Shown: positions 9,433 through 64,000, counted from the stretch's first letter. The stretch: DNA of 64,000 bases from Nitrospirota bacterium (GCA_963740085.1 CAVUCU010000003.1:1-64000), one strand, 5' to 3'. Translations and numbers: made by a program. Notes: generated from the sequence alone by a model not told the origin.

Positions 9433-9520
9433 GGCGGGGTGCCGGGAGCGGTCGAACGGGGCGGTCTTGAAAACCGCTGACGGGGCAACTCGTCCGTGGG
9501 TTCAAATCCCACCCCCGCCG
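9433..9520 (+). tRNA. tRNA-Ser (anticodon UGA)
   Basis: Acceptor stem GGCGGGG/CCCCGCC, anticodon arm GCGGT-CTTGAAA-ACCGC, long variable arm GACGGG-GCAA-CTCGTC, T arm GTGGG-TTCAAAT-CCCAC, discriminator G, no encoded CCA. Confidence 0.95.
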
Positions 9521-9831: not shown

Positions 9832-10826
9832 GCAACCTCAGGTGCAAACACTGCTACCAACAGGGAAGTTTGCCTGATGAAATGTCTTTATCTGAGATAA
9901 CATCCGTCATAGACGAAGTATCAGACATGTTGAACGAGTGGAGGGAAACGCATCACATCGATTTTACGTCCAGTTTCAATGTCACGGGCGGTGAACCATT
10001 CCTGAGGAGGGATTTTTTCTCCATCCTGGAGGAATTAAAAAACAAGGGGTTTGACGCCTTCATTCTTACGAATGGCACCCTCATCGATCGCAACAAAGCC
10101 GATGTGCTCGCCAAACTCGCCGTGAAGGGAGTCCAGGTAAGCATCGAAGGACCGGAGAATATTCACGATGCCATCCGGGGCCCGGGCAGTTTCTCATCCT
10201 CAATAAAAGGCATACGAAATCTCCTCGAAGCCGGCATTCCGGTGACACTGAATACTACCCTCTCCGATATGAATGCCGCCTGTTTCGCAGACGTTATCGA
10301 TCTGGCGTCTTCACTCGGAGTGCAGCGCGTGGGTTTTTCACGGCTTGTACCCACGGGACGCGGGGGTGACATGCTGAACACTATGCTTTCCCGGGAGGCC
10401 CTTGGGGATTTATACAATTCTATTTTTTCATTCAATGCAAAAGGGCTTCAAATTGTCACGGGAGATCCCGTTGCGTCGCAGATGAATGGACCTGCCGTTA
10501 ATGACGGCGAAACTCCCTTTCCATCAGGAGGATGCGCGGCAGGCATCTCCGGATTGACGATACTCCCCGACGGTACCGTGACTCCTTGCAGAAGACTTCC
10601 TGTTCCCATCGGCAATGTAAAAAAAGATTCCCTGAGGGAAATCTGGGCGACATCAGACGTATTACAGGGATTAAGAGATAAGTCCCGGTATACAGGCAAA
10701 TGCGGCGAATGCAGCAAGTGGTCGGCTTGCAGGGGCTGCAGGGCAATTGCCTTTGCCTTTTCCAAAGCAAACGGCAATGCCAGTTGCCTTGCCGAAGACC
10801 CGCAGTGTTTTCTGCCGCATGAGTGA
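9831..10826 (+). CDS. Radical SAM/SPASM protein, 5'-truncated
   Basis: CNLRCKHC at 9831-9854 in frame with ORF 9870; TGGEP; SPASM cysteines CAAG..PC..KCGEC....CRGC..EDPQC. Confidence 0.9.
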   Translation, partial: CNLRCKHCYQQGSLPDEMSLSEITSVIDEVSDMLNEWRETHHIDFTSSFNVTGGEPFLRRDFFSILEELKNKGFDAFILTNGTLIDRNKADVLAKLAVKGVQVSIEGPENIHDAIRGPGSFSSSIKGIRNLLEAGIPVTLNTTLSDMNAACFADVIDLASSLGVQRVGFSRLVPTGRGGDMLNTMLSREALGDLYNSIFSFNAKGLQIVTGDPVASQMNGPAVNDGETPFPSGGCAAGISGLTILPDGTVTPCRRLPVPIGNVKKDSLREIWATSDVLQGLRDKSRYTGKCGECSKWSACRGCRAIAFAFSKANGNASCLAEDPQCFLPHE

Positions 10827-10847
10827 AACCGGGAAAGGTTGGCTTGC

Positions 10848-11384
10848 ATGGCTCTATGGCTTGTGGACCCTGATCATTCAGTTGCGGCATTTTCCGTCGT
10901 CCACATGATGATCGCCCACGTTCGGGGCCAGTTCAACAAGATCAGCGGGACTGTTTATTTTGATCCTTTGAATATCAATGCCTCTTCAGTGGAACTCGTC
11001 ATTGATGTCGCAAGCATTTATACGGGGATACGGAAACGTGACGACCACCTGAGAAGTTCTGATTTTTTCAATGTCGATACGTGCCCCACCATGTCGTTTA
11101 AAAGCACCCGCATCGAATCAGCGAATGACGATCTGGTACAGGTGACCGGCGACCTGCGAATACACGGCATAACGCGTCGGATTACGGTCCCGGCACTGTT
11201 GTCAGGACCGGTAAAAGATCCCTTTGGCGACGGATCAAGCATGGGCTTTACCGCATCATTCGTAATAAACCGCGAAGACTATGGCATAACATGGAACCAG
11301 CCAATGGCTGATAACGGGTTCATGGTCAGCTCTGAAGTCGATATCTTCATCGATATGGAAGCGGATCTGGACTCGACAGAATGA
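10848..11384 (+). CDS. YceI family lipid/polyisoprenoid-binding protein
   Basis: VDPDHS.AAFSVVHMMIAHVRGQF, RDDHLRSSDFF, GDLRIHGIT, REDYGITWN. Confidence 0.92.
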   Translation: MALWLVDPDHSVAAFSVVHMMIAHVRGQFNKISGTVYFDPLNINASSVELVIDVASIYTGIRKRDDHLRSSDFFNVDTCPTMSFKSTRIESANDDLVQVTGDLRIHGITRRITVPALLSGPVKDPFGDGSSMGFTASFVINREDYGITWNQPMADNGFMVSSEVDIFIDMEADLDSTE

Positions 11385-11414
11385 CAATGAAAACGGACAG
11401 GACGGTGTGGAATC

Positions 11415-12779
11415 GTGAAAGCGTATGATGTAGTCGTCATCGGCGCGGGTGACGCAGGGCTGGGAATAGCTTTTAAAGCCCTCTCAGGCGGCCTGAAGGT
11501 CGCACTGATCGACAAGGGAACCGTGGGGGGAACCTGCATCAACACTGGTTGCGTGCCCTCTAAAACACTTATTACCGCTGCAGACAGATTCGTTGAGTCC
11601 GTGGAAAATTCAAAACTCGGCATTCGTTCTAAAACGAGAGAAGTGGACTTCAACGCGGTCATGAAGCGGATGAGAAGCGCCGTCACCAATGGGAGAAACG
11701 CCATTCGACAGGCTATGAAAACGTCCAGAAATCTCGATTTCATACACAATGAAGCCCATTTTATGGATGAACATACAATTGAAGCCGGAGGTCGCTCTAT
11801 CAGAGGGGGGAAGATTTTCATCGCAACCGGTGCGCGGCCTTCGATCCCTCCGATACCGGGACTTGATGCAATTCACTACCTGACGAATGAAAGCGTCCTG
11901 CGGCTTGAACACAAACCTGAAAGCATGATCTTTGTCGGGGGCGGATTTATCTCGCTTGAATATGCGCACTTTTTCTCAGCCCTTGGCGTGAAAGTTTCGA
12001 TCATTGAGAAACACGCGGCGCTCCTGCGTTTTGGCGAGCCGGAGATCTCTGAATTGCTGAAAAACAAATTGGGGCAACGGGTCAAACTGCATCTGGGTTT
12101 CGAGACAAGGGCTGTCCGACGCACCGTCAAGGGTCATGCCGTAATGGTAAAAGATCTCAATACCGGCCGGAAAAAAGAGCTCGTCGCGCAGGCAGTGGTC
12201 GTTTCCACGGGCAGAACCTCCAACACAGACCTGCTGGGACCTGAACACGCGGGGATCAAGACCGATGAGGCCAATTTCATCAAGGTTGACGACTATCTTC
12301 GGACGAATAAAAAACATATTTGGGCAATCGGGGATGCCATCGGCGGGACAATGTTCACCCATGCAGCGGACAAAGAGGCTGAATTGGCATGGAACAATGC
12401 GACACAGAGAAAAAAAATAAGAATGGATTTTGCACAGGTACCCTATGCGGTCTATACTCATCCCCAAATAGCATCGGTGGGCCTCACAGAACAACAGGCC
12501 CGAAAACACTACAAAATACTTGTTGGCCGCGCCTCGTATTCCGATACGGTAATGGGAACAGCGATGATGGAGCGTGAGGGTTTTGCAAAGGCTGTCGTCG
12601 AAAGGGGCACCGGGAAAATACTGGGATTTCACATCATCGGTCCGCATGCAGCAATGCTCATTCAGGAGGTCATCAATGCCATGCTAAACAAAGCCGATGT
12701 GAAGTCCATAACCGGATGTATGCATATATTCCCGGCACTTTCAAATATCATTCCGGAAACGTTCAATAATCTCAGATAA
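11415..12779 (+). CDS. Class I pyridine nucleotide-disulfide oxidoreductase (DLD/MerA-like)
   Basis: GAGDAG, GGTCINTGCVPSK redox disulfide, GGGFIS, AIGDA; C-terminal HIFPALSN. Confidence 0.88.
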   Translation: MKAYDVVVIGAGDAGLGIAFKALSGGLKVALIDKGTVGGTCINTGCVPSKTLITAADRFVESVENSKLGIRSKTREVDFNAVMKRMRSAVTNGRNAIRQAMKTSRNLDFIHNEAHFMDEHTIEAGGRSIRGGKIFIATGARPSIPPIPGLDAIHYLTNESVLRLEHKPESMIFVGGGFISLEYAHFFSALGVKVSIIEKHAALLRFGEPEISELLKNKLGQRVKLHLGFETRAVRRTVKGHAVMVKDLNTGRKKELVAQAVVVSTGRTSNTDLLGPEHAGIKTDEANFIKVDDYLRTNKKHIWAIGDAIGGTMFTHAADKEAELAWNNATQRKKIRMDFAQVPYAVYTHPQIASVGLTEQQARKHYKILVGRASYSDTVMGTAMMEREGFAKAVVERGTGKILGFHIIGPHAAMLIQEVINAMLNKADVKSITGCMHIFPALSNIIPETFNNLR

Positions 12780-12824
12780 CACCCGACCATTCACACCACT
12801 GTCTATTGCCTATAAAAACTCGTT

Positions 12825-14081
12825 CTAACCAGCATGCACGGTCATTTTCGGAACCAGCAGTTCCCTGAACGCCTTGATGAGACGCCCGTTGTCCCACCAT
12901 GTCCGCACCGTGATCCTGATATAGCGTCCGTCGAGTCCAGTGAAGGAAGAACAGTCCCGAACAAATATCCCGCGTTCTCCGAGTTTGCCGATGAACGTCG
13001 GCACATCAATGGCAGTGACTTTGATGAGTATGAAATTTGAAGAGCAGGGAAAGGTTTCCACTCCGGGAAGTATCCTGAAGGCCGAAAAAAGTCGGTCGCG
13101 CTCTTTCTCTATCAACCGGCGCGTCTTTTTGATATATGGCCAATCACCCAGGACCGCTATCGCTGCCCGTTCTGCGGGAATGCTCACCGTCCACGGTTCC
13201 TGCGCGTCACGCAAGACCGCAATGGTCTTCTCATCGGACACGGCGTATCCGATCCGGAGTCCCGGCATGCCGAAGAATGCGGTAAAGGCCCTCAGACAGA
13301 TGAGGTGGGACGATTCCACGGCTTCTTTGATGATTGAATCGGAGTCCATGAGCTCAAAGTCCATGAATGCTTCATCAACCACCAGTCGCACCCCGTGCTG
13401 GAGCGCAAACCGCACGATCTCGAGCATTTCCGACTTGGGGACGATCCGGCCGGTCGGGTTGTTCGGATTGCAGAGAAAGGCCATATCCGCATCTTTGAGC
13501 GCAAAGGACATCTCCAGGGGGTCCACCCGGAAACCCTCACGCTCCAGGAGAGAAAACGGAATAACCTCTCCACCCGCGTCTTCGACCGCAACAGCGTATT
13601 CCGAAAAGGTCGGGAATGGTATCAATACCTTCTTCGGTCTGAACACGCGCGGGATGAGGTGGATGAGAGCATTCGATCCATTGCCACATACGACATGACC
13701 GGATTTTATGCCGAAATACCGCGCGATCGCCGAGCGCAGCTCGCGCATGTCAGGGTCGGGATAGCGGCCGATGGATGAAATCGCCCTTTTCGCCGCCCGT
13801 TTTGCGACCGACGACGGCCCCAGGGGATTCACGCTCGAACTGAAGTCGAGGATCTTGTTCTCCGCATAACCGTAGCGCCGTGCCGCCTCGTAGATATTTC
13901 CACCGTGGGTTCGAGTCCTCTTCTGAGCGGCCACATCGGCGCTTACCGTCGTGGGGCTGTCTGTTTCCGTATTCTGCACCGCAGGTGTCCCCTTCCCTTT
14001 TGGAATGCGAATCGCGAATTGAAATTCAAGGGGCAGTTGTTTCTCCTTCCGCAATTCGCCTTCCTTCTGCCTAACATCCAT
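12825..14081 (-). CDS. CobD/HisC-like class I/II PLP-fold protein lacking the Schiff-base Lys (true start may be near 13934)
   Basis: HGGNIY, LDFSSSVNPLG, GNGS, CNPNNPTG, VDEAFMDF, RAFTAFFGMPGLRIGY, RDCSSFTGL. Confidence 0.85.
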   Translation of the reverse strand: MDVRQKEGELRKEKQLPLEFQFAIRIPKGKGTPAVQNTETDSPTTVSADVAAQKRTRTHGGNIYEAARRYGYAENKILDFSSSVNPLGPSSVAKRAAKRAISSIGRYPDPDMRELRSAIARYFGIKSGHVVCGNGSNALIHLIPRVFRPKKVLIPFPTFSEYAVAVEDAGGEVIPFSLLEREGFRVDPLEMSFALKDADMAFLCNPNNPTGRIVPKSEMLEIVRFALQHGVRLVVDEAFMDFELMDSDSIIKEAVESSHLICLRAFTAFFGMPGLRIGYAVSDEKTIAVLRDAQEPWTVSIPAERAAIAVLGDWPYIKKTRRLIEKERDRLFSAFRILPGVETFPCSSNFILIKVTAIDVPTFIGKLGERGIFVRDCSSFTGLDGRYIRITVRTWWDNGRLIKAFRELLVPKMTVHAG

Positions 14082-15835
14082 TACAGTTCCGCTGCCAGAT
14101 CGGGGAACCGTTCTTCCATAAAGTTTTCAGCCGTTTTTCTGGCCAATGCGGCTGTGGGCTGCTGCATGACGAGCGACGCAAGTTCGACGGCATCCTGCAT
14201 GCGGACCGATCTGACCACCTTTTTTACCCAGGGGATCGAGGCCACGTTCATGCTCAGGTGTTGGAACCCCATCCCGAGAAGGATCGCGGCGTAGAGCGGA
14301 TCGCCTGCCATTTCGCCGCACATTGCAAGCGTAATGTTCGCCTGGTGCGCGGCGACGGACACACGCTCGAGCAGACGGAGCACGGCAGGATCGAGCGGCT
14401 CGTACATATATGCCACGTGCTCGTTCAGTCGGTCGATCGCAAGTGTGTACTGGATCAGATCGTTCGTGCCCACGCTGAAGAAACTGGCTTCACGGGCGAG
14501 AAGGTCGGCGATCATGGCGGCTGACGGTATCTCTATCATAACGCCGATCTGAACGTTCTCGTTGAACGCCTTGCCTTCTGCCCTGAGTTCCGCCTTCACT
14601 GTCTCCATGATCTTTTTGGTCTCATACAATTCGGGCAGACCGGAGATCATCGGAAGAAGGATCTTGATGTTCCCGTGGGCCGTCGCCCTGAGGAGACCGC
14701 GCAGCTGGACCGTAAAGATATCGCGGTTCTGGAGGCAGAAGCGAATCGCGCGCAACCCGAGAGCCGGGTTCGCCTCCTTGTCGAAACCGCCGAGCAAGCC
14801 GATCTTGTCCCCGCCCACGTCGAGCGTGCGGATCACGACCTCATGGGGGGCGGCCTTCTCCACTACATGACGGTATGCTTTGTAATGCTCCTCCTCGGTC
14901 GGCAGGGTCGTCCTGTTCAGGAACAGGAATTCCGTGCGGTAGAGACCGATGCCGGTACCGCCGTGGTCCGCCGCGGATGCTACTTCCTCCGGCAGTTCGA
15001 TATTGCCCTGGAGCTGGACCACATGGCCGTCAAGGGTCTCGGCAGGAAGCGACTTCAACTTTTCGAGATCCTGTTCGAAGTACTTGTATTTCTGCTGCTT
15101 CTTCAGGTAGTCGAGAAACGTCTCTTCTTCGGGACCAACGATCACGACGCCGTGAATACCGTCAAGGATGACCACGTCGCCGGTCTTGACCGTTTTCGTG
15201 ATGTTCTCGAGGCCGACTGTTGCGGGGATACCGAGTGATCGCGCAAGGATCGCAGTATGCGACGTCCGGCTCCCGGCATCGGTGGCGAACCCGAGGATCT
15301 TGTCCTTCCGCATCATAAGGGTATCGGTCGGTGCGAGGTCATGAGCTATGATTATGGCCTCTTCATTGATGTCGGCAAGGCTCTCCTGCTTATAACCGAC
15401 GAGATTGCGGAGGACACGCTCTCCGACCTGATCCACATCCTGCTTGCGCTCGCGCAGATACTCGTCCTCGATCGTGTCGAACTTAAGCCCGATCGCGTTG
15501 ATCGTTTCCTTGAGCGCGCCTTCGGCATTCAGATACAGCTCCTTAATACGCTTGATTGTGCCCTCAACAAGCATTTTGTCTTCGAGCAGCATGATGTGTG
15601 TTTCAAGAATGTAGCGGTGGGTCTTGCCGAGGCCCTTGGCGAAGCGCTTTTTCAGGTCCTCAAGCTGGGACTTGGATATTTCCACCGCCTTCTTGAACCG
15701 CGCCACCTCGTCCTTGATGCTGACTTCCTCGATCGTCCGTCCCGCCACCACCACCCTGCGACGGTCAAGGAGGTACGCCCTGCCGATCACGATGCCGGGC
15801 GACGCCACAATGCCTCTGTAGATTTTTTCGTGCAT
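14081..15835 (-). CDS. ptsI: PTS enzyme I (PEP-protein phosphotransferase)
   Basis: GSRTSHTAILAR (phospho-His), GLYRTEFLF, RTLDVGGDK, SVGTNDLIQY, MCGEMAGD. Confidence 0.97.
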   Translation of the reverse strand: MHEKIYRGIVASPGIVIGRAYLLDRRRVVVAGRTIEEVSIKDEVARFKKAVEISKSQLEDLKKRFAKGLGKTHRYILETHIMLLEDKMLVEGTIKRIKELYLNAEGALKETINAIGLKFDTIEDEYLRERKQDVDQVGERVLRNLVGYKQESLADINEEAIIIAHDLAPTDTLMMRKDKILGFATDAGSRTSHTAILARSLGIPATVGLENITKTVKTGDVVILDGIHGVVIVGPEEETFLDYLKKQQKYKYFEQDLEKLKSLPAETLDGHVVQLQGNIELPEEVASAADHGGTGIGLYRTEFLFLNRTTLPTEEEHYKAYRHVVEKAAPHEVVIRTLDVGGDKIGLLGGFDKEANPALGLRAIRFCLQNRDIFTVQLRGLLRATAHGNIKILLPMISGLPELYETKKIMETVKAELRAEGKAFNENVQIGVMIEIPSAAMIADLLAREASFFSVGTNDLIQYTLAIDRLNEHVAYMYEPLDPAVLRLLERVSVAAHQANITLAMCGEMAGDPLYAAILLGMGFQHLSMNVASIPWVKKVVRSVRMQDAVELASLVMQQPTAALARKTAENFMEERFPDLAAEL

Positions 15836-28739: not shown

Positions 28740-28932
28740 GACAAGACCTTCTTGGCGCTATCCCCCAATTTCAAACCACCAACCCTCGGATAAATTCCAG
28801 ACAAATAAATAATAATTGACATCTCCCTGTGGAATCCCTTTTCTCCACCGTCTCCCCGCCGGGGAAACTAAACCTGCGCGTTGCAATTGTCAGGTGATGC
28901 GCGGTGCTTGAATTTCATGTTGACTGTTGTCG

Positions 28933-55151: not shown

Positions 55152-55850
55152 ATGCCTCCCCTTTCGGACATCCAGCAGCGAATCGGCTATACATTCAAGG
55201 ACACGGAGCTCCTCGAACGCGGGCTCACCCACAAGTCCTATGCGAACGAGTGCCGGGTCCCCTATCACAATGAACGGATGGAGTTCCTCGGCGACGCCGT
55301 CCTCGGTCTCGTCATAAGCGAATATCTGATGAAGGCCTTCCCTGAATCCACTGAAGGCGACCTCTCGAGGCTCAGGGCGGCAGTCGTGAGCGAACCCGCC
55401 CTCGCCGCCGTTTCCCGCGAGATCGGGCTCGGCAGCTATCTTCTGCTCGGAAAAGGGGAAGATCAAACAGGCGGAAGGAACAAGGATTCGCTCCTTGCCG
55501 ACTGTCTTGAGGCACTCATTGCGGCCGTATATCTCGATGCGGGCAAGGATGCAGCGGAGTCGCTCGTTATCCGCCTTTTTGAAGAGGTGATCAAGAAGAC
55601 CAGCACCTCCGGCGGATCGCTTGATTATAAGACGGAGTTCCAGGAGCGCTGCCAGGAGCAGCTCAAACAGCTTCCGGAATACCGCATTGTTTCCGAGACC
55701 GGCCCTGATCATCAGAAGCAGTTCGAGATGGAAGTATGGATCAAGGGAAATCTTGCCGGCCGGGGCAGAGGAAAGAGCAAAAAGGAGGCGGAGCAACGTG
55801 CGGCCAAGGAAGCCCTGGAAAGACTTTCTGAGAAATCGAACCCTGCATAA
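55152..55850 (+). CDS. rnc: Ribonuclease III
   Basis: NERMEFLGDAVL, DCLEALIAAVYLD, dsRBD SKKEAEQRAA. Confidence 0.97.
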   Translation: MPPLSDIQQRIGYTFKDTELLERGLTHKSYANECRVPYHNERMEFLGDAVLGLVISEYLMKAFPESTEGDLSRLRAAVVSEPALAAVSREIGLGSYLLLGKGEDQTGGRNKDSLLADCLEALIAAVYLDAGKDAAESLVIRLFEEVIKKTSTSGGSLDYKTEFQERCQEQLKQLPEYRIVSETGPDHQKQFEMEVWIKGNLAGRGRGKSKKEAEQRAAKEALERLSEKSNPA

Positions 55851-56176
55851 GCCTACAGAGAGCAGTTCAGCCACATAAAGTACAAATAAATCAATCAGCA
55901 CTTTGGTAAAAAACTTCACCAAACAGGTGATTTTTCTTTTTGGCGTCAAGATGCTGTTTCTCCTCTGTGATTTTTGAGCCTTCAGTGGCCAACTGCCGTT
56001 TTTATCATAAAATCAGGAACAACCGCGCCAACCCCGATGTTCTCGCAGAATATCTACCCTTGAATATGCAAATTGCATATTGGTCCGACTAATTCTAATT
56101 TTCCACATATTGCATATTAGTCAGCAATTGAATTGCAATGAATTCCACCCCTTACCTTAAGTTTTTTCAATTCATC

Positions 56177-56206
56177 TTGACCAATTCATATTGTTTATGC
56201 TACCGT
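56177..56206 (+). promoter_or_regulatory. Putative cassette-array (Pc-like) promoter
   Basis: TTGACC-18 nt-TACCGT with extended -10 TG. Confidence 0.45.
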
Positions 56207-56215
56207 ATCCCGTCC

Positions 56216-56234
56216 CTATAATAACTTGTTATAC
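56216..56234 (+). mobile_element. attI-like simple site
   Basis: CTATAAT-AACTT-GTTATAC: inverted L/R boxes 5 bp apart, 9 nt before the first cassette ATG. Confidence 0.45.
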
Positions 56235-56243
56235 CCTTAAATT

Positions 56244-57005
56244 ATGAAGGACGAAGAAAATATATTTACACGCAAACTTGAGGTCTTCCGCACTGAGATT
56301 GAATCGGCCATTCAATTTTTTTATGCCCATCGTGCAATGAATGGAGTACTGGCCAAAGACAAATACACACTTGAGATTGTTAATCGAACCCCGCTATTTT
56401 GGGTCACTACTACGGGTGCCCTTCATACTGCTTTTTTCATTACATTAGGGCGCATTTTCGATCAAGACTCAAATCACAATATCGACAAGATTCTCCGCAC
56501 TGCGCAAGAACACACTATAATCTTTTCTAAAGAAGCATTAGAGCGAAGAAAACGTGCAGGAAGTGCAAATGCAGCTGAGTGGATTAATGAATACATGAAG
56601 AGTGTCTATGTTCCAAGCGCTGTGGATTTTCGTAGATTAAGAAAGTATGTCGCCAAATATCGAAAAACATATGAAACTGTTTATAGAGACATCCGAAACA
56701 AAGTAATTGCCCACAAACAGCTGTCTAACGTAGATGACATTCATGCACTGTACGCTAAGACAAATATTGCCGACATGCAAAAATTGCTCATCTTTTTGAA
56801 CAAGCTTTATCATGCGCTCTGGCAGCTTTACCACAATGGGAATAAGCCCGTATTGCGACAGATGAAGTATTCTGCTAAAAGAATGATAAGAGCAGAATTA
56901 CCTAAATGGCAAAGCCACCATGTTCAGGAGCGAATAGTGGCCGATACCGTAAATTTCTTAAAACTGCTTTCGAATATACCGAAAGAACAATTGGGCCGAG
57001 ATTAA
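56244..57005 (+). CDS. HEPN-domain (AbiU2-like) protein, first cassette
   Basis: Low GC; FITLGRIFD and RNKVIAH HEPN-type motif; all-helical character. Confidence 0.7.
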   Translation: MKDEENIFTRKLEVFRTEIESAIQFFYAHRAMNGVLAKDKYTLEIVNRTPLFWVTTTGALHTAFFITLGRIFDQDSNHNIDKILRTAQEHTIIFSKEALERRKRAGSANAAEWINEYMKSVYVPSAVDFRRLRKYVAKYRKTYETVYRDIRNKVIAHKQLSNVDDIHALYAKTNIADMQKLLIFLNKLYHALWQLYHNGNKPVLRQMKYSAKRMIRAELPKWQSHHVQERIVADTVNFLKLLSNIPKEQLGRD

Positions 57006-57011
57006 ATCGCT

Positions 57012-57287
57012 ATGCAAAAGATGATGTCGATGTTCATCGTAATACTTCCTGGAATCGTCGGGGTGATCCTTCGCCTACGACATTTCCGTGAGATTCCCGC
57101 CTGGCTGTTGTCATGCACGATAATCCCTATATTTATTCTCGTTGATGAATTCCTTCTCCTTTACCATGGCGGCGGTGCCTCAATGTGGCCCATCGCCATT
57201 GCTTTTGGAACTTTTTACGGGTCCATGACAGGCGGTTTTGGCGTAGCGATTGCGTCATACTATCTCAAAAAGAAAAAGCTAAACTAG
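57012..57287 (+). CDS. Small 3-TM hypothetical membrane protein
   Basis: Hydrophobic; GGGASMWPIA; Lys-rich tail; followed by attC. Confidence 0.7.
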   Translation: MQKMMSMFIVILPGIVGVILRLRHFREIPAWLLSCTIIPIFILVDEFLLLYHGGGASMWPIAIAFGTFYGSMTGGFGVAIASYYLKKKKLN

Positions 57288-57301
57288 ATAAACCGAGCTG
57301 A

Positions 57302-57360
57302 ATATAACCTGCGCCTCGACAGCGACGCGCCAAAGACGGCGCGTCAGGCGCGCGTTAGAA
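57302..57360 (+). mobile_element. attC site (59 bp)
   Basis: ATATAAC..GCCT[C]GAC / GTCAGGC..GTTAGAA; unpaired C is the 9th base after TAAC. Confidence 0.85.
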
Positions 57361-57378
57361 TCATTATGGAGGTGAAAT

Positions 57379-57714
57379 GTGCCATCTTTAGTCATACATA
57401 CCCCGGATTCCCAATTAGGTCGCGAAGGCACAAAGAGCTTCGAAGAGACTTTTAAATCAGGTGTCGGAAGTGCTTACGCTCTTAACAATAAAATATATCA
57501 ACAAATACATCTTGGCTGTAAGGTTGTGTTGCTATGCAAAAAAAGAAGATTACGGGCCGAGGGCCAACTCGTTCGGCTTGAACCTGCCACAAATGAGGGC
57601 AGACCATGGGTTACCGGGAATCATATCCAGAGGTATAACGTGCTTGTAAAAAACTTCGATATGGTCCCATATACATCCGAAGCACTTAACCGCAACGGGG
57701 TTGCAGTTATCTGA
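57379..57714 (+). CDS. Hypothetical cassette protein (111 aa)
   Basis: GGAGGTG SD before GTG; bounded by attC sites. Confidence 0.7.
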   Translation: MPSLVIHTPDSQLGREGTKSFEETFKSGVGSAYALNNKIYQQIHLGCKVVLLCKKRRLRAEGQLVRLEPATNEGRPWVTGNHIQRYNVLVKNFDMVPYTSEALNRNGVAVI

Positions 57715-57719
57715 CCAAT

Positions 57720-57783
57720 TGATAATAAGGCGATGCGCCTGACACGGCAAAATGACGCTATTTGTGCGAGCTTTACGTTGGTC
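57720..57783 (+). mobile_element. Degenerate attC site
   Basis: TGATAAT-AAGGCGATGCGCCTGAC...GAGCTTTAC-GTTGGTC; poor pairing. Confidence 0.4.
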
Positions 57784-57850
57784 TTCTGTTTAAAGGCTGT
57801 TAATAACTCCGTTCAGTGAGAGGGACAAGAACGTCACTCAAGGAGATCTT

Positions 57851-58408
57851 ATGAGAAGGGTTGTTTTTGCGATCAATATTACCACTGACGGGTACTGCAA
57901 CCACACGGACATGATTGCCGACGACGCGGTGCACGAGTACTTCACCAGGCTGCTGCGCAATGCGAATCTCCTCCTCTTCGGCCGGAATACATATCAACTC
58001 ATGGTACCCTATTGGCCCGAAGTCGCCAAAAACCAATCTGAGAATGAAGCAACCAATGAGTTCGCTCGCGTGTTCGACTCTCTCAACAAGATCGTATTCT
58101 CCACGACATTGAAACAGGTTGAAGGAAAGAATACGAGAATCGTGCGTGCTAACCTTGCGGAAGAAGTGCTCGCGCTGAAGCAGCAGCCTGGAAAAGACAT
58201 TAACATAGGCAGTTTGAGCATTGCGTCCCAGCTTTCGGAGCGCGGTTTGATTGACGAGTATCGTTTCGTGGTTCATCCGGTTGTTGCCGGAAAAGGACCG
58301 CGGTTATTCGAAACCGTGAAGCCGCAGGACAGGCTTCGACTCGATTTTATTGGTTTGGAAACCTTTCAATCCGGCGTCGTTGCCCTTCATTACAGAAAGC
58401 ATACGTGA
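57851..58408 (+). CDS. DHFR/RibD C-terminal domain protein
   Basis: [43 protein letters not shown]. Confidence 0.92.
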
Positions 58409-58439
58409 GTCGAAACGCAAACGAAGATATTTGAAAAAG

Positions 58440-58498
58440 TTCTAACGTGAACGCTCGAAAGGGGCTCTAAATACGCGCCCCTCAGCGTCGTGTTGTCC
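58440..58498 (+). mobile_element. attC site
   Basis: TTCTAAC..CGCT[C]GA-AAGGGGC...GCCCC-TCAGCG..GTTGTCC. Confidence 0.75.
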
Positions 58499-58521
58499 CA
58501 TGAAAACAGCGGTGAGAAAAT

Positions 58522-59172
58522 ATGACTAAGTACACAGAGCCTGTGTGGTTCAACTCCGCGCTGATCACAATTGACACACAGTGCGACACACTCGACAGAC
58601 AACCTTTTGAGATTCCGGGAACATCGGCGATTCTTCCCAACATGAGAAAACTCCTGCAAGCTTACCGCAAGGCAAAGAGGCAGATCGTTCACATTGTTCG
58701 GATTTATAAATCCGACGGCACCAATGTTGATTTATGCCGAAGAGAGTTGGTTGAACGAGGTGCCGCTTTAGTGTTGGCAGGTTCCGCAGGTTGTCAGCTA
58801 GCGACGGAATTACTTCCGCACCCCGGCATTGAACTTGATGCGAATCTTCTTCTCTCCGGTGGTATCCAGCACATACAAGCTGGAGAGGTAATCATTTACA
58901 AGCCGCGTTGGGGCGCATTCTACAATACCCCCTTAGAGAAGTACCTGCAGGAAAAAGGTATTTCGACGCTTGTCTTTAGCGGCTGCAACTTTCCAAATTG
59001 CCCTCGAACTTCGATATATGAAGCAAGCGAACGCGACTTCCGGGTGGTTTTAGCGGAGGATGCAATATCCGGCTTGTACGACCAAGGAAAACGGGAAATG
59101 CGAAATATTGGCGTGGAGTTGATTCTAACGGACCAAATCATTGATGCAGTTCATCAGACCAGTAAGTCATAA
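58522..59172 (+). CDS. Isochorismatase/cysteine hydrolase family
   Basis: ALITIDTQCD, KPRWGAFY, GCNFPNCPRTS..EASERDF. Confidence 0.92.
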   Translation: MTKYTEPVWFNSALITIDTQCDTLDRQPFEIPGTSAILPNMRKLLQAYRKAKRQIVHIVRIYKSDGTNVDLCRRELVERGAALVLAGSAGCQLATELLPHPGIELDANLLLSGGIQHIQAGEVIIYKPRWGAFYNTPLEKYLQEKGISTLVFSGCNFPNCPRTSIYEASERDFRVVLAEDAISGLYDQGKREMRNIGVELILTDQIIDAVHQTSKS

Positions 59173-59226
59173 CAATCGCGTCCACATCGACTCGCCAAAA
59201 AGCGGTGAGTGACGCGATCGTTAGGC
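59167..59226 (+). mobile_element. attC site (60 bp); upstream stop codon lies inside R''
   Basis: TCATAAC-AATCGCGT[C]CAC...GTGACGCGATC-GTTAGGC. Confidence 0.9.
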
Positions 59227-59250
59227 CCTGGAAATACAGAGGAGAGCACG

Positions 59251-59595
59251 ATGAGCAACGAACAGGTGGCACCTGAGACGAAAGGTGTTACGGTGAAGTT
59301 ACTTGCAACGGTTGACCTTGGCCCTGAGATCGAGGGCATGGCAGGGCGCCAACTTCGAATGCGTATGGTGACCATCGAGCCTGGAGGCGTCTTCGGCCCG
59401 ATTCACGACCATAAAGACAGACCAGGCACCGTCTACATCCTGCAAGGAGCGATCACTGACCATCGAAATGGAGTCGCTACGGACTATGGACCGGGAGTGG
59501 GCTGGCCCGAGGATAGGAACACCACACACTGGCTTGAGAACAGAGGAACGAAGCCGGCGGTGGAGATCTCGGTCGATATAGTCAGGCAAGAGTAA
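59251..59595 (+). CDS. Cupin domain protein
   Basis: IHDHKDRPGTVYILQG, HWLENRG. Confidence 0.9.
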   Translation: MSNEQVAPETKGVTVKLLATVDLGPEIEGMAGRQLRMRMVTIEPGGVFGPIHDHKDRPGTVYILQGAITDHRNGVATDYGPGVGWPEDRNTTHWLENRGTKPAVEISVDIVRQE

Positions 59596-59623
59596 GCTCA
59601 AGCCCGACATCTGACACGATCGG

Positions 59624-59701
59624 GCCTAACACGCGGCTCGACCGGACGCCCTTCAGTCGGCTTCGCCTCCTTTTGCGCGCCGGTTAGCCACAACGTTGGC
59701 G
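59624..59701 (+). mobile_element. attC site (78 bp)
   Basis: GCCTAAC-ACGCGGCT[C]GACCGG...CCGGTTAGCC-ACAAC-GTTGGCG. Confidence 0.88.
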
Positions 59702-59709
59702 AGATTAAT

Positions 59710-60114
59710 ATGGATATCTACTTAATCATCAAGAGTATATTATTCTTTATCCTGGTTGCTTCCGGCGAAACATTAAACGGGATTGCCAGAACTGTTTATC
59801 TGAACAAGCGAGTTGGTATTAAAAAGGCAAAAAGGATATCCATGGCATCCGCTTTGATACTTTGTTTGCTTGTCTCTTATTGGTATATCCCGCTGCTCAA
59901 CATCCGTACCGATAAAGGTCTGCTGATTCTTGGCGTCTCTCTTTCATCATTTATGGCGTTGTTTGACATTGTCCTGGGCAGGATCGTCTTTAAAGCAAAA
60001 TGGGAAACAATCTTGGATGAATTTAACCTCGCGAAAGGTAATCTGCTGGCACTTGGCATGATCGTCATGGCGCTCTGTCCCTTGCTGGCATCAAAAATTC
60101 CGAGTATCTTCTAA
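59710..60114 (+). CDS. Hypothetical 4-TM membrane protein
   Basis: Low GC, hydrophobic, ETLNGIAR; starts 8 nt after attC. Confidence 0.75.
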   Translation: MDIYLIIKSILFFILVASGETLNGIARTVYLNKRVGIKKAKRISMASALILCLLVSYWYIPLLNIRTDKGLLILGVSLSSFMALFDIVLGRIVFKAKWETILDEFNLAKGNLLALGMIVMALCPLLASKIPSIF

Positions 60115-60180
60115 ACGGGGCGAGTTACCGCCGCGATTGATCGGACATCTTGAAGTACCCGACTCAAAGGAACTGATGCG

Positions 60181-61437
60181 GTGACAACATTGGATACAGT
60201 AATTGTAGGTGCTGGTCAAGCCGGTCTCGGGGTCAGTTATTATCTGAAACGGGATGGCCGCCGGCATATTATCTTTGAGCAAGGACGGATAGGCGAAACG
60301 TGGTTATCCCAGCGTTGGGATTCATTCAGGCTCAATAGCCCCAATTTTTTGAACGCTTTGCCCGGTTTCCCCTACGACGGCCCGGAGCCCGATGGTTTCG
60401 GGCGGTGCGATGAACTGGTCTCCTATTTTCAACGATACGTCGAGCTGTTCCAATTGCCGGTTCGAACGGGTGTCACGGTCGCCTCGGTCGAGCATGCCGA
60501 AGATGGGGAACACTTTATCGTGAGAACAAGGACCGGCGGACAGGAAGAAGCGGTCCAAAGCCGTTCCCTTGTCATCGCTTCCGGTATCCAGCGGACACCG
60601 AAATTCCCTTTGATCCGCTCCCGCATACCCAGCAATATTACGCAGCTGCATACTGCTGACTACCGCAGCGCGGCAGCGTTGCCGCCGGGTGCAGTCGTCG
60701 TTGTCGGCAGCGGGCAATCAGGCTGCCAGATAGCCGAAGAACTGCTGTCCGTCGGCCGGACGGTGTATCTTTGCACAGGCAAAGTTGGGCGGGTTCCCCG
60801 CCGATATCGGGGACGCGATCTGTTCGCATGGTGGGTTGATACGAAGTTTTGGGACGTCACCTTTGCCAGTCTGGCGGACAAGGCTATTAGCCGCGCGGCT
60901 CAGCCGCAGGTCTCCGGTCTTGGACGCCATGGGCACACCGTCAGCCTGCAATACCTGGCGCGCCAGGGTGCGGTGATCCTGGGGCGCCTGCTGGACGTAG
61001 AAGCAGACACGCTCGTTCTGAGCGATGAGGCGGCCGCCCATGTCCGCTTCGCCGATGAATTCTCGCAAAGGTTAAAGGACGGCGTTGATGCCTACCTGAC
61101 ACAGGCAGGTATCACCTCGCCGCCACCCGAGGCTGATCCGGCGGACGTACCCGATCCCCTGGCCGGGTGCGTTTCGCCGTTGCGACGGCTGAATTTTCGC
61201 GAGGCAGGGGTCAGCACCGTTATCTGGGCCACGGGGTTCACGGCAGATTTCAGCTGGTTGCACTTGCCGGCACTCGACGCAGAAGGTAAGCCGGTCCATG
61301 AGCGGGGAATTTCGCCGGTGCGCGGTCTGTACTTCGTCGGATTTCCCTGGCTTAACAGTCGAAAATCAGGCATCATTTATGGAATAGAGGAAGACACCCA
61401 TTACATCGCTGGTGCAATTGCACAACAATTGGCCTAA
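60181..61437 (+). CDS. Flavin-containing monooxygenase (CzcO/MSMEG_0569-like)
   Basis: GAGQAG, RWDSF, LHTADY, GSGQSG.QI, IWATGF. Confidence 0.9.
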   Translation: MTTLDTVIVGAGQAGLGVSYYLKRDGRRHIIFEQGRIGETWLSQRWDSFRLNSPNFLNALPGFPYDGPEPDGFGRCDELVSYFQRYVELFQLPVRTGVTVASVEHAEDGEHFIVRTRTGGQEEAVQSRSLVIASGIQRTPKFPLIRSRIPSNITQLHTADYRSAAALPPGAVVVVGSGQSGCQIAEELLSVGRTVYLCTGKVGRVPRRYRGRDLFAWWVDTKFWDVTFASLADKAISRAAQPQVSGLGRHGHTVSLQYLARQGAVILGRLLDVEADTLVLSDEAAAHVRFADEFSQRLKDGVDAYLTQAGITSPPPEADPADVPDPLAGCVSPLRRLNFREAGVSTVIWATGFTADFSWLHLPALDAEGKPVHERGISPVRGLYFVGFPWLNSRKSGIIYGIEEDTHYIAGAIAQQLA

Positions 61438-61604
61438 GGACGCACAATAAAGCGCCCAACGCGAGGAACCAACAGAAGGTCCTATAGGCTCCCTATTTAT
61501 GTCGATTCAAGAAATCGCACCATTTATGCGTAGGATTGTTCAGCTGAGCTGGCATAACCCATGATAAAAGTCGCAGCCGCGAAAGCGTGCAAGGAAGGGG
61601 TAGT

Positions 61605-62783
61605 ATGAAGAACGAACTTTCGCCTGAAGCGAAAAGTGAAGGGAACGAAAGCGTGCCGGAAGCACCGGGACCTGCTCCAGCGGCGCTGCGCATGCCGGTT
61701 GATGTCAGCAGTTTTTCGCTCTCTCTGCTCACGGTGCTCGCGGTCATCTTCGTGCTGCATTGGGCCGCGGCGATATTCATCCCGTTGATGTTGGGTGTGA
61801 TGATCAGCTATGCGCTTTCTCCCCTCGTCAACCTGATGCAAAAATGGCGGATTCCGCGCGCTATCGGGGCCGCAGTATTGCTGCTCGTTATCGTGGGAGG
61901 GACCGTCTCTATCGCTTATTCGCTCAGCGACGATGCAGCCAAGATGATCGAAACCCTGCCCAGCGCCGCGCAGAAGATCCGCCTGGCGAGGCTCAAAGAC
62001 CGGGGAACGTCCAAAGGCACGATGGAAAATGTGCAAAAAACCGCGACCCAACTTGAGCGGGCAGCGAGTGAGACAGGCGCTCCGGAGCCTGCCGCTCCGA
62101 GCGGGGTGACGCGGGTGCAGATCGAAAAGCCAAAACTGAATATCAAAGACTACCTTTGGATGGGAACCAAGGGCGCCTTCGTGTTTGCCGGCCAGCTAAC
62201 CATGGTATTGTTTCTGGCGTATTTTATGATGGTTGCCGGCAACACGTTTCGGCGCAAGCTGGTCAAGATCACCGGCCCTGCCCTCAGCAAGAAAAAGATC
62301 ACCCTTCAAGTGCTGGATGAAATCGCCGGCCAGATCCAGCGCTATCTGCTGGTGCAGATATTCACCAGCTTTGTGGTGGGCATAGCGACCTGGCTCGCAT
62401 TTGTCTGGATCGGCCTGGAGAATGCGGCAATCTGGGGAATCGTAGCCGGGGTATTCAATACGGTGCCCTATCTCGGCCCGGTCATTGTTACCGGCGGCAC
62501 GGCGCTCGTGGCCTTTCTCCAATTCGGGACATTCAGCATGGCGTTTCTGGTTGCGGGCACCTCGCTCGTCATCACCAGTCTCGAAGGTTACCTGCTGACG
62601 CCGTGGCTTACCGGTCGGGCAAGCCGGATGAGCCCGGTGGTGGTTTTCGTCAGCGTACTGTTCTGGGGTTGGTTGTGGGGCGTGTGGGGGTTATTGCTGG
62701 GCGTGCCCATTATCATGATTCTCAAGGCGGTATGCGATCGGGTGGAGGAATTGAAGCCCATCGGCGAATTGCTCGGCGATTAG
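61605..62783 (+). CDS. AI-2E family transporter
   Basis: ALSPLV, NTVPYLGP, LEGYLLTP, WGVWGLLLGVP. Confidence 0.93.
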   Translation: MKNELSPEAKSEGNESVPEAPGPAPAALRMPVDVSSFSLSLLTVLAVIFVLHWAAAIFIPLMLGVMISYALSPLVNLMQKWRIPRAIGAAVLLLVIVGGTVSIAYSLSDDAAKMIETLPSAAQKIRLARLKDRGTSKGTMENVQKTATQLERAASETGAPEPAAPSGVTRVQIEKPKLNIKDYLWMGTKGAFVFAGQLTMVLFLAYFMMVAGNTFRRKLVKITGPALSKKKITLQVLDEIAGQIQRYLLVQIFTSFVVGIATWLAFVWIGLENAAIWGIVAGVFNTVPYLGPVIVTGGTALVAFLQFGTFSMAFLVAGTSLVITSLEGYLLTPWLTGRASRMSPVVVFVSVLFWGWLWGVWGLLLGVPIIMILKAVCDRVEELKPIGELLGD

Positions 62784-62939
62784 GAGTGAATTCTTAATTT
62801 CAGCACTCACGGCTTTTTTGATTTGGTCTATCATCGCACACTATTTCACTTCCAATTATTATCTTTCTGTACTAATGGGCGTAGCCGGCATTATCTTTAA
62901 TGGATTTATACAATCAACGGATGCATGGAGGTAACGCTG

Positions 62940-63209
62940 ATGTGTAGAAACATCAAAACCCTGTTCAACTTCGAACCGCCCGTAACGGATGAAGAGATTC
63001 GTGCGGCGGCACTGCAATTCGTGAGAAAAGTGAGCGGTTTCAATAAACCATCGAAAGCCAACGAAGCTGTGTTCCTTACGGCCGTTGACGAGGTAGCGGC
63101 AGTTTCCAGAAAACTTCTGAGCTCGCTTGAGACCAGCGCACCGCCCAGGAACCGTGCAGAAGAGGCCGCCAAGGCACGGGCGCGTGCTGCTCAGCGGTTT
63201 TCCACTTAA
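62940..63209 (+). CDS. DUF2277 family protein
   Basis: MCRNIKTLFNFEPP..EIRAAALQFVRKVSG. Confidence 0.9.
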   Translation: MCRNIKTLFNFEPPVTDEEIRAAALQFVRKVSGFNKPSKANEAVFLTAVDEVAAVSRKLLSSLETSAPPRNRAEEAAKARARAAQRFST

Positions 63210-63247
63210 AACTGGCTGACTGGAGTTTTTTTCGCTACAATACGGCC

Positions 63248-64000
63248 ATGATCATCCCCTTCTTTATCCCTCATTCCGGCTGCCCGCACCAGTGCGTGTT
63301 CTGCAACCAGAAGAACATTACCGGCCAGGCAAAGCCGGTCCCATCTTCCGCGATCCCTCGGAAGATAACCGAGTACCTTGCCAGCACCAACTCCGTTGAG
63401 CCAGCACACGTGGCATTTTACGGCGGAAGCTTTACCGCCCTGCCGATTGAAACGCAGAAAACATATCTCATCGCTGTCCAACCCTTCATCCAGGCTTGTC
63501 ACATTGCAGATATCAGGCTCTCCACCCGGCCCGATCGCATCACCAACGAGGTCCTCAACCTGCTCAAGGAATATCACGTAACCACCATTGAACTCGGCGT
63601 CCAATCCATGGATGATGCGGTTCTCACCCGTTCCGGCCGTGGTCACACAGCAGCCGATACCGTGAATGCGGTAAAGCTTATAAAATCCCGTGATTTTCTG
63701 ATCGGCCTTCAGCTGATGCCCGGTTTGCCCGGTGATTCTGCCGAGAGCTTCATGAGAACGGCAAACAGGGTCATTGAGCTCAAGCCTGACTTCGTCAGAA
63801 TCTATCCCGCCCTCGTGATCAAAGACACACCGCTCGAAGACCTGTATACGACCGATCGCTATGTGCCGCTCTCTCTTCATGATGCCGTTGCGTTGTGCCG
63901 GGAAGCTCTCGAAAGGTTCGAACGGGCGGGAATCGACGTGATAAGGATCGGTTTGCAGCCGACAGAGGAGCTGGAAAAACACGGAACGATCGTGGCCGGA
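63248..64000 (+). CDS. Elp3/YhcC-like radical SAM protein, 3' end beyond the window
   Basis: MIIPFFIPHSGCPHQCVFCNQ, AFYGGSFT, STRPD, IELGVQS, RIYP. Confidence 0.9.
   Translation, partial: MIIPFFIPHSGCPHQCVFCNQKNITGQAKPVPSSAIPRKITEYLASTNSVEPAHVAFYGGSFTALPIETQKTYLIAVQPFIQACHIADIRLSTRPDRITNEVLNLLKEYHVTTIELGVQSMDDAVLTRSGRGHTAADTVNAVKLIKSRDFLIGLQLMPGLPGDSAESFMRTANRVIELKPDFVRIYPALVIKDTPLEDLYTTDRYVPLSLHDAVALCREALERFERAGIDVIRIGLQPTEELEKHGTIVAG

Follow-up and report, generated by a model that had tools for sequence, protein, structure and literature searches.

The region downstream of rnc in a Nitrospirota bacterium (GCA_963740085.1, CAVUCU010000003.1:1-64000; this whole stretch of 64,000 nucleotides is called the window) raises the question of how a row of integron gene cassettes comes to stand between two core genes with no integrase beside it. 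An earlier note, made from the sequence alone, had read positions 56216..60114 as such an array, of the type known as CALIN (cluster of attC sites lacking an integron integrase), which is defined by at least two attC sites and no neighbouring intI (PMC9024848). That architecture was borne out, as at least two attC sites are clustered on one strand, no intI adjoins them and the flanks are syntenic, and we regard it as very probable that the element is a CALIN. As to its origin, we consider it on balance probable that this is a decaying chromosomal CALIN, most likely left by a sedentary integron whose intI was later deleted. CALINs are common, with 2961 counted in 21,105 complete genomes (PMC9024848, 10.1101/2022.09.11.507474), and the array itself is therefore ordinary; the notable point is that the closest relative carries wholly different cassettes at the same spot.

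A geometry scan detected four attC-type sites, which we call A, C, D and E (Table 1) and which begin at the four positions named in the earlier note, 57302, 58440, 59167 and 59624. All are on the plus strand, which is the gene strand, within 2.4 kb. Each has the form xxxTAAC...GTT with inverted cores, 5-6-nt spacers, paired L boxes and one extrahelical base, and the unpaired C that had been placed 9-10 nt after TAAC is the 9th, 10th, 9th and 9th base, respectively. Relative to the stop codon that precedes them, the sites start at 14, 31, -6 and 28 nt, respectively, which puts each of them at a gene end. The scan looked for an AAC core, a 5-6-nt spacer, three pairs, an unpaired base, three pairs, further stem, a spacer and a GTT core, and in ten class 1 plasmid loci it picked out sites of attC shape following the cassette genes, 17 distinct ones of which served as controls. 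It gave four plus-strand matches and no minus-strand match in 56216-60114, compared with one match in the remaining 50,401 nt of the host organism. Among 1000 dinucleotide shuffles none gave four sites and one gave three, a null that is somewhat flattering because the scan was written and its threshold chosen after the sites had been seen. The scan also misses real sites, such as one in locus L083 and the one at 13391 in the sister locus L002 described below, both detected by a covariance model. Pairwise identity among the four sites is 42-68%, and two types can be told apart, the short sites with a second extrahelical base (A, C and D) and the 78-nt site E. This fits the mixed origins proposed in the earlier note, but long decay would produce the same heterogeneity.

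Three home-made attC covariance models were applied. R1 was built from 7 aadA-like sites and recovered 14 class 1 matches only, without the long dfrA or arr types; the training set of R2 consisted partly of sites found by searching with site E itself; and R3 was built from 22 class 1 plasmid attC matches aligned by R2. R1 found only site E (E-value 0.75), and so did R2 among the four sites (E-value 5.5e-5, from a model trained partly on sites found with site E). Over the window plus L002 (84,690 nt) R3 gave six matches with E-values below 1, all of them array sites, namely A, D and E in the window and three in L002. Site C had no plus-strand match with any of the models, so that a covariance-model search, as proposed in the earlier note, recovered three of the four sites with R3 and one of four with R1 or R2. 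With the same settings R3 had no match at E-values up to 10 in five relatives (98,397 nt), and a search of 29 relatives (475,525 nt) with an attC model and default filters gave three scattered matches. Single weak matches to the attC model (E-values 0.74-4.1) at L027 20112-20170, L011 18241-18304 and L012 19343-19406 lie 8-10 kb downstream of the rnc start and may be isolated cassettes or noise. R3 had no match at a minus-strand geometry match of the window (28777-28932), which we took as noise.

Covariation pointed in the same direction. When seven short sites were aligned, 82.5% of the cells were paired, compared with 25.5-44.1% in slid controls, and six of ten L-stem pairs were altered on both sides, figures to be read with the caveat that the structure was derived from the same seven sequences and that two rows are one base out of register. 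Two MAFFT alignments of attCs of mixed length, and a third alignment, were set aside as too poor in quality. The idea of a 4-nt deletion shared by sites A and D was rejected, both aligning canonically with the L002 and Manganitrophus sites.

Folding divides the sites. We calculated pfold, the probability of the recombinogenic bottom-strand fold, after PMC5371416 with slightly different constraints; among class 1 control sites it exceeded 0.1 in 12 of 17 and fell below 0.01 in two (0.006 and 0.0007). Sites D and E are above 0.1, whereas A and C have very low values (Table 1) and minimum-energy folds that differ from the canonical attC fold, so the bottom-strand folding on which the earlier note had made its reading depend is predicted with a pfold above 0.1 at D and E only. 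The bottom strand is stabler than the top strand at all four sites, by 0.7-5.4 kcal/mol. The cores at the ends of the units are complementary at 6/7 positions for AbiU2 with its neighbour and 7/7 for the PUA-like gene with RibD, from which we take these units to hold two genes each, natively or through attC loss, and the left core of site C is 7/7 complementary to the core at 57354. The cupin unit (59221-59695, 475 bp), with complementarity of 7/7, is the only cassette flanked by two well-folding attCs and is, as far as these predictions go, the best candidate for excision.

Comparison with other sites gave partial parallels. Site A has 70% identity with an isolated attC-like site, itself decayed, on a Ca. 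Manganitrophus plasmid (L093 19997-20054, CP114554.1), and no IntI match was obtained within 37-40 kb stretches of such plasmids around that site. Site E shares 47-54 of 78 positions, ungapped, with three attCs near an intI fragment on a Methylibium plasmid (best 54/78); this plasmid (L092 13603-16093, NC_008826.1) has a truncated intI followed by four attC matches, of which a tandem pair encloses the first gene. Site D had only short chance matches to plasmids. The degenerate site that the earlier note had placed at 57720 was not confirmed: it forms no attC hairpin (z -0.02 and -0.63), failed a relaxed geometry scan, had an R3 E-value of 1.7 in a search confined to the 7.4-kb region and had no plasmid match, and its likeness to the left arms of long attCs is our presumption. 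A further candidate at 61454-61554, 16 nt past the oxidoreductase stop codon, is weak (score 6.5, altered right core, z -1.07); its L box pairs, and its folding is not significant.

The absence of a tyrosine recombinase from the window, stated in the earlier note, was confirmed: the best tblastn match of IntI1 had an E-value of 0.27, for a query that detects a 32%-identical recombinase in locus L039 at 3e-34, and no Pfam integrase family occurs among the matches listed for 143 stop-to-stop frames of at least 150 aa. Reading the three reverse frames of the 390-nt leader by eye showed nothing IntI-like, and six-frame reading together with IntI1 tblastn gave no intI remnant there. An intI adjacent to attI, the mark of a complete sedentary integron, is lacking at the locus, and no intI-bearing version of it was found among 30 Nitrospirota-labelled loci (L002-L031).

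In these relatives, 28 of which hold both rnc and the radical SAM gene that bounds the window insert on the right, the gap between the two genes is 39-204 nt in 26 loci, 816 nt in L008 and about 5.1 kb in L002. As the gap is nearly empty in relatives, the insert of the window can be put at about 7.4 kb, ending at 63247; the array is one part of it, so the extent given in the earlier note falls short of the insert, and the attI-shaped site and the sister array had been overlooked. The gap of L008 contains an unrelated 166-aa gene (10858-11358) with no attC match.

L002 belongs to the sister genome of the window genome (FastTree support 1.000; five proteins, 28 taxa, L007 and L029 dropped for missing data and L031 not included), with a synonymous divergence of 0.25-0.77 in the flanking genes, and the sister clade of the pair, L003/L030, has an empty site. 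At the orthologous point (10697-15497) L002 carries its own integrase-less array, with attCs at 11743, 13391 and 15422 and no IntI match; there may also be a remnant of an attC 3' end near 14560-14575. Of its six cassette-region genes, two form an addiction-module/ParE pair; the others encode a hypothetical protein, a DapF-like protein, an S49 peptidase and a protein whose only match is a weak one to a hydrolase. None of these six proteins matches the window, and none of nine window insert proteins besides DUF2277 matches L002. What the two loci share is a 52-nt leader block, the crossover motif ACTTGTTA and the terminal DUF2277 gene with its spacer, and nothing else.

The shared block contains a 19-nt inverted repeat (about 56036-56054 in the window, 10722-10740 in L002) with a TGTTC-N5-GAAYA core. 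The L002 copy is a perfect repeat; in the window one base is altered, but a G-T pair is preserved there. Among the window and 31 loci scanned, this core occurs in the window and L002 only. A LexA box was considered for the palindrome and rejected, as the motif was found nowhere else in the window or the 31 related loci and one literature search yielded nothing relevant. On its two sides the block is flanked by about 160 nt in the window versus 0 nt in L002, and by 168 versus 27 nt. The window leader has in addition an AT-rich 19-nt palindrome (56063-56081) and a 28-nt imperfect inverted repeat (55883-55942), both absent from L002. Downstream of the block stands a site with the 7+5+7 layout of attI1 (Table 1), whose core GTTATAC is the sole GTTR of the window leader and can pair with the left core of the first attC at 6/7 positions. 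The motif ACTTGTTA lies at this position in both loci, at the first and only GTTR of each leader, and crossover would fall between 56228 and 56229.

At the other end of the insert, DUF2277 was found among the fetched loci only in L002 (95% identity), and the spacer behind it aligns ungapped. Within 63210-63247, 6 nt ahead of the start codon of the radical SAM gene, a TACAAT hexamer is conserved with L002, and one might speculate that the insert supplies the promoter of that gene. The oxidoreductase and AI-2E transporter genes that precede DUF2277 are absent from all fetched relative loci and lie in a stretch without convincing attC. The empty spacers of the relatives do not resemble the leader, and even those of L003 and L030 are unlike each other, so an ancestral attG-type target cannot be reconstructed from them.

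Integron integrases act on attC as a folded bottom strand, which they recombine with a receptor site by a crossover between the G and TT of the core, and the newest cassette adjoins the leader. The account we favour would accordingly begin with a single founding, on the branch leading to the window genome and L002, at a junction of rnc and the radical SAM gene that is otherwise empty. A single event is indicated because leader block, crossover motif and distal spacer are common to both, the carriers are sisters and their sister clade is empty; the one gene they share lies at the distal end, where integron polarity would place it. The founder would most likely have been a sedentary integron, its intI being deleted later and the attI-shaped site left behind. 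The two arrays would then have grown apart, gaining cassettes as long as there was an integrase to insert them and losing cassettes later. Once no local integrase remained, attCs would have eroded and cassettes fused, AbiU2 being joined to its neighbour and the PUA-like gene to RibD. We read decay from the contrast in pfold between A and C on one side and D and E on the other, and we favour loss of intI because an attI-shaped site survives, the leader lengths suggest separate deletions and the leader-proximal attC folds poorly. Such loss of intI at conserved loci has been described in Xanthomonas (10.1101/2025.06.18.660453). The present state would most likely be a fixed accessory operon headed by a candidate anti-phage HEPN gene, from which IntI acting in trans should excise mainly the cupin cassette, since it alone lies between two well-folding sites.

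Several observations weigh against this account. The past presence of intI here is unproven, because no intI remnant was found in the leader of the window or in that of L002, and 95% of CALINs are reported to have no nearby intI pseudogene (10.1101/2022.09.11.507474). The L002 site has no recognisable inverted left box, with only ~77 nt between rnc and the first GTTR, and a promoter scan performed at chance level (7 hits, 7.9 expected). The array is carried by two genomes only, and the DUF2277 likeness is weak evidence alone, because this family is highly conserved in general (82-97% identity to the 120 proteins listed). Core complementarity is only 4/7 in two of five units, among them that of the hydrolase, and 3/7 for the last gene, which has no attC. 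Finally, low pfold is no proof of a dead site, since values of 0.006 and 0.0007 occur in two of the 17 genuine class 1 sites.

The most serious competitor, less probable in our judgement and yet a real possibility, is a landing site without integrase, either an orphan attI or an attG hotspot, which was reloaded by IntI from elsewhere, with intI lost before the split of the two genomes or never present. In its favour, both sisters lack intI and any remnant of it at the locus and yet have disjoint cargo, and ACTTGTTA is kept at the first crossover despite the synonymous divergence; insertion at attG, moreover, has been demonstrated in experiments and put forward as an origin of small CALINs (10.1101/2022.09.11.507474), and the complete genome of a Nitrospira contains two CALINs but lacks intI (PMC9024848). 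However, a leader-proximal attC that folds poorly, with distal sites D and E that fold well, is not what loading at the front in recent times would be expected to leave, the differing lengths of leader to either side of the shared block fit independent deletions, and disjoint cargo could equally stem from differential loss of a large ancestral array. A bolder form, which we consider rather unlikely, sees a natural, long-lived integrase-free landing pad downstream of rnc, whose motif and palindrome were kept over genus-level divergence while it was reloaded in trans until the cargo had turned over completely; if true, nature would here offer a case of a dedicated receptor site that works with no integrase linked to it, or of an attG hotspot becoming an attI.

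Improbable, in turn, is that transposition or rearrangement brought array fragments from other integrons, in each genome independently, into a permissive intergenic spot. Insertion of something other than cassettes did happen at this locus, since the distal 2.6 kb has host-like guanine plus cytosine content (GC) and no convincing attC, and the unrelated gene in the same gap of L008 also fits this idea. Against it, neither the insert nor the rest of the window yielded a transposase gene, the sole transposase-family row being a below-cutoff match within RuvA, and the two carriers, which are sisters, have leader block, crossover motif and distal spacer in common. That the palindromes are terminators or repetitive extragenic palindromic elements and not attCs is very improbable, even though R1 and R2 found one of four sites and A and C depart from the canonical fold at minimum energy, in view of the fixed core-spacer-bulge geometry, the strand bias, the compensatory changes, the resemblance of site E to attCs beside an intI fragment, the cassette-typical cargo of L002 (addiction-module/ParE) and the absence of any Rfam family at the locus or the site positions.

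The cassette genes agree with what the earlier note had seen, co-oriented and mostly low-GC open reading frames: seven lie on the plus strand in 56244-60114, with a GC of 0.40-0.50 in six and 0.56 in the cupin gene (host 0.549). The first encodes a protein of AbiU2, an abortive-infection HEPN family (PMC3710099), with an RNKVIAH motif of the R-x4-6-H type at residues 151-157, and is a candidate anti-phage gene; PADLOC recognised none of eight cargo proteins and gave for AbiU2 a single non-significant match (E-value 0.01). The small hydrophobic protein behind it has 24 homologues with 66-90% identity, all on contigs below 10 kb, with the start aligned in ten, and it forms with AbiU2 either a two-gene cassette or a fused one. 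As a lead only, the next gene would encode a standalone PUA-like domain: the structural model (predicted local distance difference test score 88.6) has its best structural match in 1wmm (Z 7.1, root-mean-square deviation 3.0, 91 aligned residues), further matches are to ASCH and VcaM4I, none reaches Z 8, the best Foldseek E-value is 0.0096, and language-model look-alikes agree. At least 34 standalone homologues exist, mostly on short contigs, and the look-alike clusters are rich in phage proteins. The last cassette-headed gene encodes a hydrophobic protein whose look-alikes are hypothetical proteins only, and neither the geometry scans nor R3 gave an attC downstream of it. A blastn search of 56000-60200 against plasmids had no match, and protein searches of plasmids yielded distant relatives only.

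Table 1. Features of the rnc/radical SAM junction in the window (positions counted from the first nucleotide of the window)
Feature	Position	Strand	Observations
rnc (RNase III), left core-genome flank	55152..55850	+	TIGR02191 E-value 3.5e-82; best relatives Nitrospirota metagenome-assembled genomes
Non-coding block common to window and L002 (52 nt)	56009..56060		81% identity to L002 10696-10746, E-value 1.5e-5
attI-shaped site	56216..56234	+	degenerate inverted box CTATAAT, 5-nt spacer, core GTTATAC; 7+5+7 layout as attI1
Unit 1 gene a, HEPN AbiU2-family, candidate anti-phage RNase	56244..57005	+	PF18734 E-value 3e-22, 79.5 bits (cut-off 26.8)
Unit 1 gene b, small hydrophobic protein, full length	57012..57287	+	6 nt after AbiU2, no attC between
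attC A (59 nt)	57302..57360	+	geometry score 9/9; R3 E-value 0.37; pfold 0.0034; canonical geometry possible, competing fold dominates
Cassette gene, standalone PUA-like (EVE/ASCH/YTH-type) domain	57379..57714	+	predicted fold; lead only
Possible ruined attC left arm, not confirmed as attC	57720..57783	+	begins 5 nt past stop codon
RibD C-terminal (DHFR-like) reductase	57851..58408	+	PF01872 E-value 2.8e-17
attC C (59 nt), degenerate	58440..58498	+	geometry score 8.5; pfold 0.0003; 6-nt left spacer; non-canonical right core GTTGTCC
Isochorismatase-family cysteine hydrolase	58522..59172	+	PF00857 E-value 2.5e-24; stop codon inside attC D
attC D (60 nt), predicted recombinogenic	59167..59226	+	pfold 0.34; z -4.3, 0/200 shuffles fold as well; R3 E-value 0.13
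Cupin	59251..59595	+	PF07883 E-value 3.7e-10; cores 7/7 complementary
attC E (78 nt), predicted recombinogenic	59624..59701	+	pfold 0.80; R3 E-value 3.8e-5; fold energy alone weak, z -1.67
Last cassette-headed gene, uncharacterised hydrophobic protein	59710..60114	+	no Pfam or NCBIfam family
Rest of insert: flavin-dependent oxidoreductase (60181-61437), AI-2E transporter (61587-62783)	60181..62783	+	host-like GC 0.58
DUF2277 gene and 38-nt spacer to radical SAM gene, distal insert end	62925..63247	+	PF10041
Elp3-like radical SAM gene, right core-genome flank	63248..64000	+	domain families; rnc neighbour in relatives

The host segment is a Nitrospirota chromosome, the nearest rnc relatives being Nitrospirota metagenome-assembled genomes with up to 90% identity, and the visible sequence past the array end amounts to 3.9 kb only. 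As left and right flanks are syntenic with relatives, the array is not an artefact of the contig edge. The window as a whole is composite, with a GC of about 70% up to about 9.6 kb and ~55% beyond; its first part (1 to about 9800), with PspA-associated genes and a tRNA at 9433-9520, is from a different organism and is joined to the Nitrospirota segment without an N gap.

Set beside known systems, the array resembles CALINs generally in its co-oriented attCs, cassette genes, lack of intI and small size (the literature average is almost 6 attC sites), and does not differ from them in kind, except that it keeps an attI-shaped site and is partly decayed. The two 3-attC CALINs of Ca. Nitrospira inopinata come from the same phylum and are of similar size, in a genome listed without a complete integron and without In0; they belong to another lineage and are likened here by their published listing (PMC9024848). 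Xanthomonas CALINs (lamG/secF, recD) and intI-deleted ilvD integrons likewise keep a fixed position across species with differing cassettes, but there an intI-bearing locus is known in the genus (10.1101/2025.06.18.660453), whereas here none was found among the 30 relatives' loci. Insertions at attG, including single attC sites lacking an integron integrase (SALINs), are alike in being intergenic cassettes with no integrase or transposase nearby; attG hotspots, however, require a motif on the right-hand side of the cut and have a structure unlike attI, whereas the window site looks attI-shaped on its left, and the window stacks several cassettes in place of one (10.1101/2022.09.11.507474). For the first cassette the parallel is the HEPN-AbiU2 cassette of Vibrio mimicus, protective against T4 and T7 (10.64898/2026.03.17.712381), which has the same Pfam family and an R-x5-H motif and is likened by family only.

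A literature search, with most subscription journals and bioRxiv supplements outside its reach, found no publication on this locus. Integrase-less arrays at conserved loci across species are already known from Xanthomonas (10.1101/2025.06.18.660453), and the Nitrospirota record is sparse, with CALINs in one and intI in none of nine matched complete genomes in the PMC9024848 supplement; the present locus adds to that record. Its first cassettes (HEPN-AbiU2, a small membrane protein and the PUA-like domain) are candidate anti-phage genes. Orthologous integrase-less arrays with disjoint cargo in two sister genomes offer a concrete test case for the origin of CALINs, by loss of the integrase or by loading in trans.

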